Of a DNA stretch of 64,000 nucleotides, positions 9,828 through 55,801 are shown in pieces. This stretch comes from a virus: positions 10,271-74,270 of IMG/VR virus record IMGVR_UViG_3300009502_000041; one strand, 5' to 3'. The first letter of the stretch is position 1. Each line of letters begins with the position of its first letter. The position numbers and the translations under genes are program-made. A model generated the notes under the pieces. That model was not told the origin of the DNA and made no database searches. It saw nothing but the letters and a program-made list of their open reading frames with translations.

Positions 9828-11150
9828 TTATCCAGAACTAACAACCTTTGCTATTTTTGTGGGTAATAAACTTTTTAATATTTTTATATATTGATTAATT
9901 TTTTCTTTTAAAACCATTTTTATTATAGGTACGAGTAGTAATATTAAATATTTCTTCACTAAATTAAAAATATATTCAGTAATCATTGCAATAATTTGTT
10001 TTACGTTACATTTAATAAAAATTTTAAACTTCTTTAAATCATCTTTAGCCTGACTTATTAATATTTGACCGTTATTTTGTAATCCACTAATAATACCCAA
10101 AAGAGTACGTACTTGTGGTGATGTTGTTAATGCTTTGGCTAATGATTGTGTAATAAATTGAATTATTTTTTGAAAAAACCCGTCTTTAATTGAGTCTTTG
10201 TTTTCATCTGCAACTGTTTGATCAGAAATACTTTTATTAATACTATCATTAATTTGATTACCAACATAAAAAGAATCGGTTGATCCAGATATATTTGACA
10301 CAATATTACTTAAATCATTTAAGGATAATTTTGCTCCATATACTCCACATCCCATATCATAATTAACAACCCCATTAACCATTTCATTTGCCTTGGTTAA
10401 TAATTCATCATTATCATTAGGAGAAAGTTCAAAAGTATCGTTATCATCATCAATTAATTGCTGAATTAATTTGTCAACAACTAATTCTTGGTATACCTCA
10501 TCAACTGTTTTATTTTGACCATTGGTAATACTCCCATAAATTTTATTCATTACATTACTGATAATTTCTTTTTTATCAATAATTGTTAAGCTGTCAATAT
10601 ATTTATTTGTCCAAGTACCAATAGTCGCAGCTGGATCGCCTTTTAATGTTATTTTATCGGTAATTGAAGAATATGTCATATTTAAACCGCCAATACTTGT
10701 GGTACTTTCATTTTTAATTGCACTATATAACGAATTATCAAAATTAGGTTTAATTTTTTCATAAAGTAAACTTCCTACTTTTGAATCTGGATTAGTTTTT
10801 AATTTACCATAAACATCAATATTTTTTACAGGTATTTGATACCCCGTTACAGAAAATGCTGTGGGTAAATTAATACCAGAATTAAATTGAGTTGCTTGTT
10901 TTTTTAATGCATCTTTCATTTTAGGTTCAATACCATCAATAAATTTTGTTAATAATTCACCAGTTAATTCTTGAAGTGCTACAGTACCGACAATTACCTT
11001 CAGAGTATCTAATAAAAACGGAATAACGTCTTTTTTATTGTTGATTGAAGGGAAAAGGTTTGTAGTGTTCGTTTTATCAATAGTTTGAATAATTGATGTA
11101 TACGAACCAATTTTACTAAAAACATTTTTTTTACTATCACTCAAACTCAT
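9828..11150 (-). CDS. Hypothetical protein, probably virion-associated
   Basis: 440-aa ORF in a late operon; no family recognised. Confidence 0.75.
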   Translation of the reverse strand: MSLSDSKKNVFSKIGSYTSIIQTIDKTNTTNLFPSINNKKDVIPFLLDTLKVIVGTVALQELTGELLTKFIDGIEPKMKDALKKQATQFNSGINLPTAFSVTGYQIPVKNIDVYGKLKTNPDSKVGSLLYEKIKPNFDNSLYSAIKNESTTSIGGLNMTYSSITDKITLKGDPAATIGTWTNKYIDSLTIIDKKEIISNVMNKIYGSITNGQNKTVDEVYQELVVDKLIQQLIDDDNDTFELSPNDNDELLTKANEMVNGVVNYDMGCGVYGAKLSLNDLSNIVSNISGSTDSFYVGNQINDSINKSISDQTVADENKDSIKDGFFQKIIQFITQSLAKALTTSPQVRTLLGIISGLQNNGQILISQAKDDLKKFKIFIKCNVKQIIAMITEYIFNLVKKYLILLLVPIIKMVLKEKINQYIKILKSLLPTKIAKVVSSG

Positions 11151-49762: not shown

Positions 49763-51148
49763 ATGAAACCTATTAATTATTGGACATACGAAAATTGTAA
49801 AGTAGAAGCATTGAAATACCACAATAGGGTTGATTTTAGAATAAAATCCAGCGGTGCTTATTATTCGTCCCGTAAAAATGGGTGGCTAGAGGAAATTTGT
49901 TCACACATTATAAACAAGAAAAAAACAAGTAATTATTGGACTTATGATAAGTGTAAAGAAGAGGCATTAAAATATAAAACAACAAATGAGTTTAAACTAA
50001 ATTCCGTGGGGGCATATGGATCATCAAAGAGAAATGGGTGGATGGTGAAAATATGTTTACATATGATCCAAAAGAAAAATTCTAGTTATTGGGAAAATAT
50101 TGAAAATTGTAAAAACGAAGCATCGAAATATAAAAATAGAGGAGAGTTCAAATCAAAATCTAATTTATCATTTAAAATATCTCGTAAAAATGGTTGGTTA
50201 AATATTGTTTCTCCACTTACGAATGTCAATGCTGCCCCAAATAATTATTGGATATACGAAAGGTGTAAAAAGGAGGCATTAAAGTATTCCACGAGAAGTG
50301 AATTTAAAAGGAAATCCATAGGTGCTTATGCTGCTTGTTTGAGAAACAAATGGGATGATGAATTATTTTCACATATGATAAGAATTGGAAATAGATATTT
50401 AAAATGTGTTTATGTTTATGAGTTTTCTGATAATTGTGCGTATGTTGGACTTACATATAATATGGAAAGTAGAACTCATGATAGAAATAAAACTGCAACC
50501 GATTCTGTTACAAAACATATTAAAGAAACGGGGATAAAAAACCCAACATTAAAACTGTTAACTGATTATATTAATGTTGATGAGGCGGTTATTTTAGAAG
50601 AAAAATATGTGAAAGAATATAAAAATAATGGTTGGTGTTTATTAAATAGTGCAAAAACTGGTAGTGTTGGTAGTGTTAGAAAATGGAACAAAGAAAAGTG
50701 TTTGAATGTTGCATTAAGATGTAAAACATATGGTGAATTTAGTAAAAATTTTTCTGGGGCGTACCAATGTGCCTGTACAAACGGTTGGTTGAATGAAATT
50801 TGTTCTCATTTAACAAGAAAAAATAAAAAAGGGGGTTATTGGACAAAAGAATTGTGTAAATTGGAATTCTTGAAATATAAAACACTAAAGGAAATAAGAT
50901 TAAATTCCAAAACGGCATATTCTAAGGCATCTAAGAATGGATGGCTCAGTGAATTAAATTCGCATATGATAAGGTTTGTAAAAAGTAGAGGATATTGGAC
51001 AAAAGAACGTTGTTTAGAAGAGGCACTTAAACATTTTAAAAAAACTGAGTTTCGTAAAAAAAATGGAAGCACATATGTTATTGCATGCAAAAATGGTTGG
51101 CTAAATGATATTTGCTCTCATATGATCAAAAAAGAACCTAAATTATGA
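49763..51148 (+). CDS. GIY-YIG homing endonuclease flanked by seven ~52-aa repeats
   Basis: CVYVYEFSDNCAYVGLT..R..E..LLN GIY-YIG core; YW..E.C..EALKY..EF...GAY...NGW...CSHM x7. Confidence 0.85.
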   Translation: MKPINYWTYENCKVEALKYHNRVDFRIKSSGAYYSSRKNGWLEEICSHIINKKKTSNYWTYDKCKEEALKYKTTNEFKLNSVGAYGSSKRNGWMVKICLHMIQKKNSSYWENIENCKNEASKYKNRGEFKSKSNLSFKISRKNGWLNIVSPLTNVNAAPNNYWIYERCKKEALKYSTRSEFKRKSIGAYAACLRNKWDDELFSHMIRIGNRYLKCVYVYEFSDNCAYVGLTYNMESRTHDRNKTATDSVTKHIKETGIKNPTLKLLTDYINVDEAVILEEKYVKEYKNNGWCLLNSAKTGSVGSVRKWNKEKCLNVALRCKTYGEFSKNFSGAYQCACTNGWLNEICSHLTRKNKKGGYWTKELCKLEFLKYKTLKEIRLNSKTAYSKASKNGWLSELNSHMIRFVKSRGYWTKERCLEEALKHFKKTEFRKKNGSTYVIACKNGWLNDICSHMIKKEPKL

Positions 51149-52197
51149 AAACCCGCACATTATTAATTGATGGATCATATTTATTGAAACGTTCGTTTCA
51201 TGGGGCTAAAGACATTTACAATTCTAAAGGAATACATATTGGTGCAATATATCAATTTTTAACCACCGTAAGAATGTTAATATCAAAACACGCAATAAAC
51301 CGCTGTGTGGTTTTCTGGGACGGTGATCAAGGAGGAAAACAACGTTATTTAATTAGTTCTGATTATAAAAGTAACAGAAAAAATAAGGATTGGCATAATA
51401 GAATCGAGCTTTCTGATTTCGAAATAAAAAAAGAGAAAGAAAAAGAAGAATCGATTTTATATCAACGAATAAAAATTAAAAATTATCTTGAGAACGTTTT
51501 TATAAAACAAATTGAGGTGTTAGAATGTGAGGCAGATGACCTAATTGCCAAGTATTGTATTGAACATAATAATAAGGAAGAGCTATTTTTATTCACAAAT
51601 GACCGTGACTTCGCTCAACTTTTATATTTAAATATGGTCATAATTTTTGGTAACATACCCGAACCTGTTAATAAGACTAATTACATGATGCATTTTAATC
51701 ATCATTATTCAAATGCATTAACATTAAAAATAATTTGTGGAGATGTTGCTGATAATATTAAAGGAATTGAGGGAGTTGGTGAGGATACGCTATTAAAATT
51801 ATTTCCAGAACTAAAATTTAAGCATTTATCTGATAGGGAGATTTGCACCAAAGCAGACGAGATAAATAAAGATAGAATTTTAAATAAAAAGAAACCTTTA
51901 AAATCGTTAGAAAACTTACTTAACAATATTGAGCGTTTAAAGACTAATTTTAAGCTTATTAATTTGCGTGAGCCAATGCTTAACGAGGAAGCAATTGAAG
52001 AGTTAGAGCAGCTAGAAATGCCATTATCTCCTGATAATAGAGGAAGTAAGTATCTTTATAGATTAATGATGGAAGATGAGTTTTTAAAAGTGTATGGTAG
52101 TACATTTGTACAATATGTAGAACCGTTTTATACTGTAATAATGTATGAAAAACAATTACTTACAGAATATAGAAAAAATAATAAAAATAGTTTATAA
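51145..52197 (+). CDS. 5'-3' exonuclease / flap endonuclease (T4 RNase H, PolI N-terminal-like)
   Basis: LLIDG, VFWDG, YKSNR, EADD, TNDRDFAQL, GDVADNIKGIEGVG. Confidence 0.93.
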   Translation: MKTRTLLIDGSYLLKRSFHGAKDIYNSKGIHIGAIYQFLTTVRMLISKHAINRCVVFWDGDQGGKQRYLISSDYKSNRKNKDWHNRIELSDFEIKKEKEKEESILYQRIKIKNYLENVFIKQIEVLECEADDLIAKYCIEHNNKEELFLFTNDRDFAQLLYLNMVIIFGNIPEPVNKTNYMMHFNHHYSNALTLKIICGDVADNIKGIEGVGEDTLLKLFPELKFKHLSDREICTKADEINKDRILNKKKPLKSLENLLNNIERLKTNFKLINLREPMLNEEAIEELEQLEMPLSPDNRGSKYLYRLMMEDEFLKVYGSTFVQYVEPFYTVIMYEKQLLTEYRKNNKNSL

Positions 52198-52264: not shown

Positions 52265-52912
52265 ATGTACGAAAAAGAATATAACAATATGTTCAAGTTC
52301 TCCTTGCATCAGGAAGACGTTTTGTTATGCGAAAAAGTGTTCGATGCTGACCAGTTTAACCCCTTTACCAGATATTCAATTGATATTAGGGAAATTCTTC
52401 CACGTGCAATTACTAAATTGCAAAAAACATTATCAAAGAAAAGTTATTATACACAAGTGGACGAAGACTTTGATTTGTATCAATATCATCAAAAGATGGT
52501 TAATTTATATATACCTGAATATAGAGGTTTTATGAGATATAATCCACAGCAAGTCGTTCAACAAATTGACAATAAAGTTATCAGGGGTGTTGAAAATAAA
52601 ATAGGATTCTATATCAACGATAAGCCTATTGTTGAAAGAACTTTTTATGTTGATGGTTTTAATCCTATTGCTAGATGGTCATTTGATATTGTAGACGCAG
52701 TAAGTGATATCAGTGATGCAATTTACGATCAGATTAAAAAAATTGACATTAAAAATATGTGGGATGATTATGATTTGATTAATGTATATGGATACTCGAT
52801 TTCTCAAATTAGAGAATTCTCACCCGCAAAAAGAGAAGATTTATTAAGAAAAATTAGAGGAAATGTTTCGTATGGTGTACATTCAATGACACTAACCTCA
52901 ACAGGAAACTAA
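52265..52912 (+). CDS. Hypothetical protein in the replication block
   Basis: 215-aa ORF with an internal duplicated F.L....L/I.E..F..D.FNP..R.S.DI motif. Confidence 0.75.
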   Translation: MYEKEYNNMFKFSLHQEDVLLCEKVFDADQFNPFTRYSIDIREILPRAITKLQKTLSKKSYYTQVDEDFDLYQYHQKMVNLYIPEYRGFMRYNPQQVVQQIDNKVIRGVENKIGFYINDKPIVERTFYVDGFNPIARWSFDIVDAVSDISDAIYDQIKKIDIKNMWDDYDLINVYGYSISQIREFSPAKREDLLRKIRGNVSYGVHSMTLTSTGN

Positions 52913-53003: not shown

Positions 53004-54407
53004 ATGAGCGAAACAACAGAAAATACTCTCTCTTCGTATCTCGGTCCTGAATTTCAAACACATCTCATGTGGCAATTACTGGTTGAGCCAGAGTTTGCAG
53101 AAAAAACAATATCTAGTTTGGCTATCGAATATTTCGATGACCCAAATCTTAAGAGATTATTTATAATTGTGCTTGAGTTTTATAAAGAATTTGGCAGAGT
53201 TCCAAATTTACAGAATCAGAGTATCCATCAAGCAATTAATAAATATAAAACACCCAACAACTATATTGAAGAAGAATCGCTTTTTTCCGTAATTAAACGA
53301 ATTAGTTTATGGAATGAAATGATTATTAACAAACAAATGTTATATAATGGGGATGTTGTCCAAAAAACCACCAACAATTTCATTAAACAACAAGAATATC
53401 GTAAATTAGCTGAATATATTTTGGATAAGACCAAAAATGGTGAAATTAAAAATAAGTTTATTGTCTCGCATATAGAAGATAAGTTTCAGAAGATTACCCA
53501 TATTGGTGAAGAGAATGATGATTGCGAAGAAGTGTTCGAAAATATTGATCGTGCGCTAAGAAAAGAATTCAGACAAACAATCCCAACAGGTGTCGATGTA
53601 ATTGATACATTAACTGGTGGCGGATTAGGTAAGGGTGAAATTGGTTTAATATTAAGTCCTTCGGGAGTGGGAAAATCGACATTGCTAACCAAAATTGCCA
53701 ATACTGCTTATGAAGAAGAAAAAAATGTTGCTCAGGTGATATTTGAAGACACTCAGGATCAAATTAAGCGTAAACACTATGCAATATGGTCAGGAATTCC
53801 GTTAAGTAAAATGGATGATGAAGAAGAAAATATTATTGTAACCAAAAAAGCGTATGAAAAGGCAGAAAGCCTAAAAGGTAAAGGCAGACTTATTATTAAA
53901 AGATTTAGTCAAGAAAATACCAACATTAAAGATGTTCGTAATTGGATGCAATCTCAAGAGAAAAAGTATGGATTTAAATTTGATTTACTTGTTTTAGATT
54001 ATTTGGACTGTTTGGAATCACATAAAAATGCTCCCGATAGAAATGAGAATGAATTGGCAATCATAAAGGGATTTGAAGCGTTGGCATCTGACTTTGATAT
54101 ACCTTGTTGGTCAGCCATCCAAGCAAATCGTTGTTTAGATTTAAACACAATTGTTAACATTAAAAATATGGGAGATGTTAAGATAAAAACAGTGAACATA
54201 GGTGATGAAATATTAACAGCAAAGGGATATAAGAAAATTACAAATGTGTTTCCAATAACCAAACAAAGAACTTATAAAATAAAAACAAAAAGCGGTAAAG
54301 AAATAATTTGTTCTGAAAATCATAAATTCCCTACGGCATGTGGTACTCTAAAATCAATTAAAAGTGGGTTATTGGTTGGCGACAAATTATTTACAAAAAA
54401 CAATTGA
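53004..54407 (+). CDS. dnaB: Replicative helicase (DnaB/gp41), N-terminal part fused to split intein N-fragment
   Basis: IPTG..ID...GG, SPSGVGKS Walker A, LVLDYLD, SAIQANR followed by CLDLNT intein block A; stop at 54407. Confidence 0.92.
   Translation: MSETTENTLSSYLGPEFQTHLMWQLLVEPEFAEKTISSLAIEYFDDPNLKRLFIIVLEFYKEFGRVPNLQNQSIHQAINKYKTPNNYIEEESLFSVIKRISLWNEMIINKQMLYNGDVVQKTTNNFIKQQEYRKLAEYILDKTKNGEIKNKFIVSHIEDKFQKITHIGEENDDCEEVFENIDRALRKEFRQTIPTGVDVIDTLTGGGLGKGEIGLILSPSGVGKSTLLTKIANTAYEEEKNVAQVIFEDTQDQIKRKHYAIWSGIPLSKMDDEEENIIVTKKAYEKAESLKGKGRLIIKRFSQENTNIKDVRNWMQSQEKKYGFKFDLLVLDYLDCLESHKNAPDRNENELAIIKGFEALASDFDIPCWSAIQANRCLDLNTIVNIKNMGDVKIKTVNIGDEILTAKGYKKITNVFPITKQRTYKIKTKSGKEIICSENHKFPTACGTLKSIKSGLLVGDKLFTKNN
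54132..54404 (+). mobile_element. Split intein N-fragment (91 aa)
   Basis: C1 CLDLNT..., block B ICSENHKF, ends L.VGDKL. Confidence 0.9.
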
Positions 54408-54546
54408 AAATGATGGAATTAAAGATGATATATTATTTGCAAATGGATTTAATTTATTGAGAATTCCTGAAAGAGAATATAAAAATGGTAAAGAAGAAAC
54501 TGTTTTAAAATGTTTAAAATTTATTAATGAAGCGTATTATGGATGA
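54399..54546 (+). pseudogene. C-terminal remnant of a Vsr/DUF559-like endonuclease between the intein halves
   Basis: ENDGIKDDILFANGFNLLRIPEREYK...LKCLKFI in a third reading frame. Confidence 0.7.
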
Positions 54547-54664
54547 AATTAGTTTAATTGAAGACGAAATAGAATCTATTGAATATTTTGGTGAGGTAGA
54601 TACTATAGATATTACAGTCAAAGACACTCACATGTTTTTTGGTAATAATATTTATACACATAAT
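54527..54664 (+). mobile_element. Split intein C-fragment (46 aa)
   Basis: Block F (TIDITV..HMFF) and block G (YTHN) with +1 Ser. Confidence 0.9.
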
Positions 54665-55459
54665 TCTGGGTTTGATACCGAATTTATTGAAGCTCATCAC
54701 ACTGGGGGTAATATTAAAAGAGTTCAAAAGGCACACTTTTTCATGTCAGTAGGAAAAACTCCTGATCAGAAAGAAGCTGGACTTGCTAATATTAGAATTA
54801 TTAAAGCTAGATTTGCAAAAGATGGGCAAACATTTACGGATTGCATTTTTGATAATGATAAAATGGAAATTGTTATTCGAGATGATGATAATAAGTATAC
54901 TAAATTATCCAAAGGATTAAAACATCATGACGAAAAAGATATTGCCAAACTAGAAAGTAAAGCAAATAAATTAAATGAAATGTCTTCAGACATTCGAATG
55001 CATGAAGCTATAAGCAGAGCAAATTCAGATTCGATATTGGGTAACTTGTTAACATCATATACCAAAGAATTTGGAGAAGAAAATAAGTTTGTTAATATCT
55101 TACAAGTAGATGAAGAATTTTTTATTGATTCGATAAAGACTGATAATGCCGAAGAAGAAATAAACAAACTTCTTCAAAACCCATTAAACAAATCTTTTGA
55201 GTTGGAAATTGAATCTGAAGAGATTCAGCAAGAAAAAGTTATATTTGATGAATTTGTCGAAAAAATTGGTGAATTATCTAACAATACTCAATTTGTACCA
55301 TTTAAAGCCGTTCTCCCTCGTTACAGTAGCGAAATTCTTAGCATCAATGAAGTTGAAAACAATTTGATCGACCCCGATGAAACGCCTAGCGAACATATAG
55401 GTATTCATGAAATGTTAAAAAAAGCACGTAGTAATCAGGGGATAATAAAAAAAGAATGA
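54527..55459 (+). CDS. dnaB: Split intein C-fragment fused to the helicase C-terminal part
   Basis: MKRIMDEI...DITVKDTHMFFGNNIYTHN/S, then helicase motifs (KRVQKAHF, IIKARF) and an acidic tail. Confidence 0.9.
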   Translation: MKRIMDEISLIEDEIESIEYFGEVDTIDITVKDTHMFFGNNIYTHNSGFDTEFIEAHHTGGNIKRVQKAHFFMSVGKTPDQKEAGLANIRIIKARFAKDGQTFTDCIFDNDKMEIVIRDDDNKYTKLSKGLKHHDEKDIAKLESKANKLNEMSSDIRMHEAISRANSDSILGNLLTSYTKEFGEENKFVNILQVDEEFFIDSIKTDNAEEEINKLLQNPLNKSFELEIESEEIQQEKVIFDEFVEKIGELSNNTQFVPFKAVLPRYSSEILSINEVENNLIDPDETPSEHIGIHEMLKKARSNQGIIKKE

Positions 55460-55519: not shown

Positions 55520-55610
55520 TGCGTTGTGGAGAAGTTGGTCATCTCGCCTGTCTCATAAGCACGGAGTTCCCTAACTAGGATTTACGGCTGTTCGAATCAG
55601 CCCAACGCTA
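55520..55610 (+). tRNA. trnM: tRNA-Met(CAT), initiator-like, with a long variable arm
   Basis: Acceptor GCGTTG/CAACGC with 1:72 mismatch, D arm GAG/CTC, CTCATAA loop (anticodon 55554-55556), T arm GGCTG-TTCGAAT-CAGCC; CCA not encoded. Confidence 0.85.
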
Positions 55611-55612
55611 CA

Positions 55613-55801
55613 AAATTAACTACGAAAAAGGAGTAGATGGTGAAGCTGGGAGAGCAGTGACTCAACGGTGTCACACTAAGGATAGGTAGAAATACCCAAC
55701 TCTCTAATGGTGTGTGAAGCCCATATACATTGCCCGAAAGGATAAACAATGGTGTATCTGGCAAGCCAGATACCTAATAAAAGCCATCAAGTAGTTAATT
55801 T
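55613..55801 (+). ncRNA. Unidentified multi-branched structured RNA (~190 nt)
   Basis: 11-bp closing helix AAATTAACTAC/GTAGTTAATTT enclosing at least six helices, two with GAAA tetraloops; no ORF. Confidence 0.7.

Follow-up and report, generated by a model that had tools for sequence, protein, structure and literature searches.

Organisation of the helicase locus

The 64,000-nt window analysed here (positions 10,271 to 74,270 of the IMG/VR virus record IMGVR_UViG_3300009502_000041) carries a replicative helicase gene that is broken into two open reading frames (ORFs) on the same strand, by a naturally split intein whose N-terminal half (IntN) closes the first ORF and whose C-terminal half (IntC) opens the second. 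The coordinates of these features, of an endonuclease remnant between them and of the neighbouring genes are collected in Table 1, where, as in the text, an arrow (↓) marks a splice junction. The positions of both ORFs agree exactly with the initial annotation, which had described a helicase split at QANR↓C into two genes in different frames.

Table 1. Features of the fractured helicase locus and its surroundings (positions in the window; aa, amino acids)
Feature	Coordinates	Strand	Description
N gene ORF	53004-54407	+	467 aa; 376 aa of helicase ending ..AIQANR, then IntN; frame 0
N-extein	53004..54131	+	codons 1-376 of a DnaB/gp41-like replicative helicase with Walker A/B; ends ..SxIQANR
IntN	54132..54407	+	91 codons (Cys1 ... 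KNN; 54132-54404) and stop TGA 54405-54407; Lys-rich
Endonuclease vestige	54391..54546	+	last ~47 codons and stop TGA 54544-54546; third frame
C gene ORF	54527-55459	+	310 aa; ATG start; frame 2
IntC	54527..54664	+	46 codons from ATG 54527, or 42 from ATG 54539; ends ..NNIYTHN; acidic
C-extein	54665..55459	+	264 codons and stop; starts with +1 Ser, SGFDTEF..
Repeat-containing ORF	49763-51148	+	461 aa
5'-3' exonuclease/FEN gene	51145-52197	+	Pfam 5_3_exonuc_N, E 1.5e-27
Conserved ORF	52265-52912	+	215 aa; unknown function
tRNA-Met (CAT)	55520-55610	+	92 nt; called by ARAGORN
GC-richer stretch	55613-55801	+	structured-looking; just 3' of the tRNA
Terminator-like hairpin	55754-55773	-	

The identity of the host protein is evident from its N-terminal part (N-extein), which matches Pfam DnaB_C at residues 193-378 (E 5e-16) and PHROG 19, 'DnaB-like replicative helicase' (E 5e-46), while the C-terminal part (C-extein) supplies the remainder of the RecA-like core followed by a variable acidic tail. 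Between the IntN stop codon and the ATG at 54527 lie 119 nt, and a third-frame ORF occupying this gap overlaps both the end of IntN and the start of IntC. Its stop codon (54544-54546) overlaps the reading frame opened at 54527 by 20 nt and that opened at a second in-frame ATG, 54539, by 8 nt, the latter ATG lying 5 nt upstream of the stop. Since the same ATGnnTGA arrangement marks the IntC start of a related locus, L014, the true IntC start is ambiguous, and 54539 (42 aa) may have been the ancestral one instead of 54527 (46 aa). Thus the separate ATG, the acidic character and the THN↓S ending previously reported for IntC hold, and its length of 46 aa is not certain.

Homology to solved inteins was found for both halves. 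IntN matches the gp41-1 intein (PDB 6QAZ) with a phmmer E-value of 1e-16 over 88 residues, at ~45% identity, whereas IntC is matched by the DnaB intein 4O1R (E 1.5e-4) and by 6QAZ (E 4e-3) and covers model positions 121-155 of 155 in Pfam Intein_splicing. At the curated threshold of this Pfam model (35.8 bits), each half of the window intein taken alone scores under, and a contiguous relative (L004) scores over (40.4). On the strength of these homologies, the two halves would together form an intein of the HINT fold.

Splicing residues were examined in a joint alignment of the window, gp41-1 and three relatives. Cys1 (54132-54134), which directly follows ..QANR, occupies the same column as residue 1 in gp41-1 and the relatives, and the block B S-x-x-H motif (..EIICSENH..) aligns with ..EIICSEEH.. 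of gp41-1, with S61 and H64 invariant in four relatives. Block F (..DTIDITV..H..) provides its Asp and His, and the terminal His-Asn and the +1 Ser are all in place, with ..DTIDITVKDTHMFF..YTHN↓S of the window aligning with ..ELIDIEVSGNHLFY..LTHN↓S of gp41-1. The complete set of canonical splicing residues listed in the initial annotation, those of a class 1 intein, is therefore recovered by alignment with gp41-1 and its relatives.

The organisation of the two halves is that of naturally split inteins: a stop codon follows IntN, IntC has its own start, and the break falls within the loop that canonically receives endonuclease insertions, in the same alignment column as the break of gp41-1 and the insertion of a homing endonuclease gene (HEG) in L014. 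In addition, the halves carry the complementary charge characteristic of such inteins. IntN contains 17 K/R against 7 D/E (net +10), in keeping with the Lys-rich 91-aa segment, stopping at 54407, that had been proposed, and IntC contains 3 K/R against 11 D/E (net -8, or -10 for the 42-aa version).

The gap between the intein halves and the states of related loci

By comparison with related loci, the 119-nt gap is the vestige of an endonuclease gene rather than an empty spacer. The gap ORF (54364-54546, 60 codons, in the third frame) aligns by BLASTP with residues 355-407, that is, the last 53 residues, of the 407-aa ORF that lies between the intein halves of L014 (39% identity, E 8e-10), and eight other loci have intervening ORFs whose extreme C-termini also align with it. 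A hidden Markov model (HMM; length 396) was constructed from eight intact intervening ORFs, leaving out the window row, and searched against all ORF segments of the window; the gap ORF was the sole match (E 1.9e-14, HMM positions 350-396 of 396), and no second copy of this endonuclease family was detected in the window at E<=1. The family profile in turn matches PDB 3R3P (E 2e-5), as well as Pfam MTES_1575 and DUF559. 3R3P is the catalytic domain of I-Bth0305I, the prototype of the Vsr-like 'EDxHD' homing endonucleases (PMC3239194).

Intact relatives possess the catalytic core of this family, and the aligned part of the vestige starts only after it (..IIEFDGEYWH..), so that the catalytic E-D-x-H-D is absent. 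With both the core and the N-terminal DNA-binding region gone, the vestige cannot be an active nuclease. Given that 1242-1266 nt separate the IntN stop from IntC in relatives, compared with 119 nt here, ~1.1 kb has been deleted, and the left deletion breakpoint lies at, or a few bases from, the IntN stop. The vestige can be recognised only when the intervening ORFs at related loci are set beside it: direct library matches of the gap ORF are merely suggestive (Pfam MTES_1575, E 0.16; PHROG 559, E 0.002), a tblastn search with its 60-aa product in phages returned only a chance-level match (E 0.8), and a search for longer proteins homologous to that product found none.

To place the locus among its relatives, IMG/VR was searched with both gene products and the matching loci were then read; 64 of them encode relatives of the C-extein. 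In L003, the helicase is uninterrupted, 92% identical to that of the window, and reads ..AIQANRSGFDTEF.., which is the predicted splice product (QANR-SGFD). The C-extein is collinear with this orthologue after QANR, the first 130 codons being 93% identical, and the same empty site, Q(A/S)NR-SGF, occurs in about 10 other relatives. The mini-intein of L004 (L077 in the intein tree) is contiguous, 131 aa long and located at the same site, with 66% identity to the window in the IntN part and 75% in the IntC part (65-66% and 69-75%, respectively, when L014 is included). At the DNA level, the window differs from L004 by an insert of ~140 nt located exactly at the loop between the halves.

Other loci share the split and differ in what separates the halves. 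L014 and L015 have a free-standing ORF of ~405 aa, with the IntC ATG 5 nt before its stop, and an intact ORF of ~350-430 aa is present in these two and six more loci; loci in which the endonuclease cassette is intact include L014, L078, L080 and L085. At the other extreme, the split halves of L028 and L086 are separated by as little as 45-63 nt (45 nt in L028). The states encountered at this helicase site comprise the empty site, a contiguous intein, a split intein with an intact endonuclease, an IntN-endonuclease fusion, vestiges of many sizes and a 45-nt split. The fusion was observed in L133 (841-3417), in which the IntN frame runs stop-free into the endonuclease ORF. The resulting open frame of 859 codons shares 17 nt with the IntC gene, and the fusion is possibly an intermediate towards an endonuclease-containing intein.

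Two further observations concern the inteins of these relatives. First, in L011, L012 and L014 (L014: 250-2733), the helicase P-loop houses a further, large intein that includes a LAGLIDADG domain (..GVGK↓A(Q/L)P...THN↓TT..). With its Ala start, block B Trp, block F Cys and block G Thr, it looks like a class 3 intein, so that L014 would carry two kinds of intein in one helicase gene. Second, among loci of the gp41-1 type, the same or nearly the same halves are separated by spacers of unequal length, namely 566 nt in L149 versus 150 nt in L155, and 228 nt in L134/L139-141 versus ~1370 nt in L138/L145, pointing to stepwise decay of the endonuclease gene in the gp41-1 clade too.

In a tree based on 128 alignment columns of the intein, the window groups with the contiguous L077 and the endonuclease-bearing L080 (support 94/82), followed by L081. 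All three contiguous mini-inteins (L077, L094 and L114) are single tips among split, endonuclease-bearing forms, a pattern that could reflect either repeated invasions or repeated re-fusions. One tentative and rather unlikely extension of the latter is that split inteins repeatedly revert to the contiguous form by in-frame loss of the cassette, so that splitting would be reversible or cyclical and the window would represent a 'failed reversion' in which the deletion missed the frame. If this were true, splitting would be a phase comparable to the homing cycle and not a one-way road to gene fission.

The window locus is one more member of the well-known and very common gp41-1/gp41-8-type family. 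A search with IntN among 1.84 billion representatives yielded, at E<=1e-3, 475 protein clusters defined at 50% identity, and the relatives of IntN mostly sit at the extreme C-end of helicase fragments of ~440-470 aa. Among the best 150 clusters, 114 end within six residues of the end of IntN, as split N-fragments do, and most of these fragments have ..Q-x-N-R before the intein (xNR↓C). IntN could be aligned at 80 IMG/VR loci, 68 of which are split and 3 contiguous, the remaining 9 being cut by contig ends; spacers across loci measure 45, 63, 87, 150, 228, 338, 406, 566 and 614 nt, and then 760-1585 nt. Two helicase sites are used in the family: ..xNR↓C (gp41-8 type) and, three residues downstream, ..TRSG(Y/F)↓C (gp41-1 type).

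Proposed trans-splicing and alternative explanations

Taken together, these data are best explained by a naturally split gp41-type intein that fractures a single helicase gene at the gp41-8-type site, with the enzyme rebuilt by protein trans-splicing and the split itself resulting from invasion by an endonuclease gene and its subsequent decay; we assign this interpretation a probability of roughly 0.88. Two polypeptides would be made, helicase(1-376)-IntN and IntC-helicase(377-640), whose basic IntN and acidic IntC would associate and fold into a HINT domain. Splicing would then proceed by an N-S acyl shift at Cys1, trans-esterification to Ser+1, Asn cyclisation and an O-N shift, releasing a seamless 640-aa helicase (..QANR-SGFD..). 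For the homologous gp41-1 and gp41-8 pairs, trans-splicing has been demonstrated by experiment (Pinto 2020, PMC7090010; PMC11168065). As to its origin, the intein would derive from an L004-like contiguous mini-intein whose loop was invaded by a free-standing cassette encoding an EDxHD (Vsr-like) endonuclease; ~1.1 kb of the cassette would later have been deleted, leaving the last ~47 codons overlapping the IntC start, and because this deletion did not restore the frame, the intein would have stayed split. The order of these events is proposed from the comparison of loci. With a single DnaB_C gene, it is reasonable to suppose that an essential enzyme relies on trans-splicing, and the simplest reading is that the sole replicative helicase would be made in this way.

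Several points weigh against this interpretation. Block B has Ser instead of Thr, as in gp41-1, and the IntC gene has two candidate start codons. The tree leaves the direction between contiguous and split forms undecided, because the alignment is too short. The contig covers ~23% of the estimated genome, and a second helicase elsewhere in this phage is possible. Expression of both halves is deduced from sequence, and the signals sought upstream of the IntC gene gave little: no Shine-Dalgarno-like sequence was found there, the RNA fold of the gap showed no significant structure or regulatory hairpin of the type reported by Dassa et al. (z -0.8), and a promoter scan of the upstream region identified nothing convincing. 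However, sigma-70-like sites in that scan were fewer than in shuffles, which renders it uninformative, and the genes of this AT-rich genome are generally without an obvious Shine-Dalgarno sequence, so that its absence before IntC is weak evidence.

The alternative that survives best, though improbable, is a decaying pseudogene, in which invasion and deletion killed the helicase, both halves are silent, and another helicase, of phage or host, is used. The absence of an obvious ribosome-binding site or promoter before the IntC gene would fit this explanation, as would the incompleteness of the genome in hand. On the other hand, both extein halves are full length and stop-free, and the ratio of nonsynonymous to synonymous substitution rates (dN/dS) relative to the uninterrupted L003 is ~0.045 (N-extein, 0.046; initial 130 codons of the C-extein, 0.044), demonstrating purifying selection on both. 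For the intein halves, dN/dS relative to L004 and L014 is 0.12-0.22, with dS saturated. All splicing residues and the charge complementarity have also been retained, the sequence is found again in lake samples spanning 2016 to 2020, and only one DnaB_C gene is present on the contig and in each of two complete relatives, of 357 kb (with terminal repeats) and 363 kb.

A second possibility, that the intein is truly contiguous and that the stop, the frame change and the gap arose from mis-assembly or indel errors, has very little left to recommend it. The window does come from a metagenome-assembled 74-kb IMG/VR viral contig, and a contiguous intein does exist in L004. Nevertheless, the difference from that contiguous form is the ~140-nt insert with endonuclease homology, not an indel, and the split recurs at the same intein position in 68 of the 80 related IMG/VR loci. 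The stretch was detected in freshwater and lake metagenomes of five studies, with no RNA run among those listed, and Logan contigs from other samples reproduce 54061-55000 gap-free. Specifically, a contig of run X4 (record 9; a different study, 2020) spans 54061-55000, one of X5 (record 13; the same 2020 study) spans 54278-54821, and one of X3 (record 5; another sample) spans 54264-54457, each with 0 gaps and 0 differences at the stop, gap and start or at the portion of them covered. Other lake samples show a single variant, A>G at 54186 (run X5), which changes Lys19 of IntN to Glu at a variable position occupied by Gly in relatives. Independently assembled contigs bridging the junction unchanged exclude an assembly error for practical purposes.

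It is equally hard to credit ribosome bypassing, or a pair of frameshifts, across the gap to give one polypeptide that splices in cis. Dassa et al. named bypassing and dismissed it mainly for gaps of hundreds of bases (PMC2677866), whereas the gap here is 119 nt. Yet IntN, the remnant and IntC lie in three frames, requiring two +1 shifts or a hop of ~120-135 nt; no stable take-off hairpin is predicted (z -0.8); close relatives have the same halves with 1.2-kb gene-bearing gaps or 45-nt gaps; and the boundaries of the halves coincide exactly with those of the gp41-1 halves, which trans-splice experimentally. Finally, non-covalent assembly, with the intein halves serving as an affinity clamp and no splicing taking place, as in the fragmented NrdA of Aeh1 (a non-intein fractured gene, nrdA, working as a complex; cited in PMC2677866), is scarcely tenable, since every catalytic residue is conserved across relatives only 56-66% identical, which is not expected if binding alone were selected, and the homologues gp41-1 and gp41-8 splice fast (PMC7090010).

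The phage itself belongs to an uncultured freshwater jumbo-phage lineage that was previously undescribed. A blastn search of the locus against 50,697 phage records gave no match, and the matches of the helicase protein among cultured phages are only ~25% identical.

The helicase gene is preceded by the exonuclease/FEN gene and the conserved 215-aa ORF listed in Table 1, an order preserved in the relatives L028, L039 and L056. Further upstream, the 461-aa ORF contains approximately seven repeats of ~50 aa (..NYWT.E.C..EALKY..F...GAY....NGW...C.H..) flanking a GIY-YIG-looking core (..YVYEF..YVG.T..); no Pfam hit was obtained at E<=0.01, and it is probably a free-standing homing endonuclease beside the replication genes. 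Downstream of the helicase, the tRNA-Met scores 41.6 bits with the Rfam tRNA model in sensitive mode, was missed by the whole-window scan in gathering mode, and has an insertion of ~20 nt in its variable region; a long variable arm is unusual in Met tRNA. No Rfam family exceeded threshold in the adjacent GC-richer stretch, the hits to His_leader and trpB further downstream being sub-threshold and at chance level.

Comparison with known split inteins and significance

Within the 'fractured gene' pathway of Dassa et al. (2009), the locus stands at a late stage, after decay of the endonuclease. The proposal of a fractured-gene split intein in a gp41-type helicase is upheld by the homology to gp41-1 and the shared break point, by the empty-site orthologue, and by relatives with an intact endonuclease gene. 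As in the fractured genes described by Dassa et al., a conserved enzyme gene is broken by a split intein and its parts are adjacent on the same strand; in place of the free-standing endonuclease gene between the halves, there is the 47-codon vestige. In those genes, the 3' end of the endonuclease gene overlaps the start of the IntC gene by 6-69 bp (PMC2677866), an overlap that the vestige reproduces. Endonuclease loss constitutes step III of that pathway, for which gp41-7 was the sole example shown (PMC2677866). Similar to the window, gp41-7 has adjacent same-strand helicase halves with no functional endonuclease gene between them, but it belongs to the gp41-1 allele and site; moreover, the window keeps the 47-codon vestige that documents the deletion, and has no conserved upstream hairpin.

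Among characterised inteins, the resemblance to gp41-8 (GOS metagenome; Dassa et al. 2009, Carvajal-Vallejos et al. 2012, Pinto et al. 2020) noted in the initial annotation proved correct for the insertion site and for the long acidic IntC. Its host is likewise a phage gp41/DnaB-like helicase, and its native junction, LNR↓SAY (that of gp41-1 is SGY↓SSS; Pinto et al. 2020 supplement, PMC7090010), places the insertion after xNR and before Ser, as does QANR↓SGF in the window. The two inteins share Cys1 and Ser+1, are of similar dimensions (IntN, ~88-91 aa; a long, acidic IntC, ~45 aa) and have the same charge polarity, with IntN positive and IntC negative in both gp41-1 and gp41-8 (Dassa et al. 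2009, PMC2677866). Nonetheless, identity is ~47% for IntN and ~54% for IntC (approximate values, counted by eye from a machine-read supplement, gp41-8 itself being absent from the proteins and loci retrieved), the gp41-8-like QLNR loci (L101-L119) form another clade on the intein tree, the +2/+3 extein residues are GF in the window and AY in gp41-8, and the gp41-8 locus has an intact endonuclease gene where the window has a vestige only. The closest solved structure is that of gp41-1 (PDB 6QAZ/6RIZ), which shares the split point, the polarity and the block B Ser-x-x-His; its site lies three residues further downstream (..TRSGY↓SSS versus ..QANR↓SGF), its IntC is shorter (37 aa), and its hosts are cyanophage-like.

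More distant parallels are provided by the I-Bth0305I/EDxHD family (PDB 3R3P; Taylor et al. 2011), which the intact ORFs of the relatives match and of which the window has the tail only, and by the cyanobacterial DnaE inteins (Npu, Ssp). The latter share the structural split position, charge-driven association and the rebuilding of an essential replication protein, but their halves lie at distant loci, their polarity is opposite (IntN negative, IntC positive; PMC2677866), and they differ in having Cys+1, another host protein and only a distant sequence relation.

With regard to novelty, the suggestion of a new split-intein pair stands in part: the allele is new, but its family is abundant in metagenomes, and the HEG-less gp41-7 has been known since 2009. 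What is new is this allele in an undescribed freshwater jumbo-phage lineage, the presence of a recognisable vestige, and the occurrence of all stages at one site in one lineage. A full-text literature search returned nothing specific on later surveys of split inteins in phage metagenomes, and a prior description of the comparative series is possible.

Specialists are not expected to be surprised by this locus, which is a toolbox candidate and a teaching example. It brings a further natural split-intein pair (Cys1/Ser+1) of the fast gp41 type, with the native junction NR↓SGF, and its identity of ~45-55% to two family members already employed in protein engineering makes it worth screening as an additional, possibly orthogonal, ligation tool, although hundreds of equally good candidates are present in the same databases. 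Seen alongside its relatives, it is a clear example from nature of the gene-breaking pathway put forward in 2009. The vestige, being datable, would indicate that the split has lasted longer than the selfish element responsible for it, and that the helicase may then be left dependent on trans-splicing.

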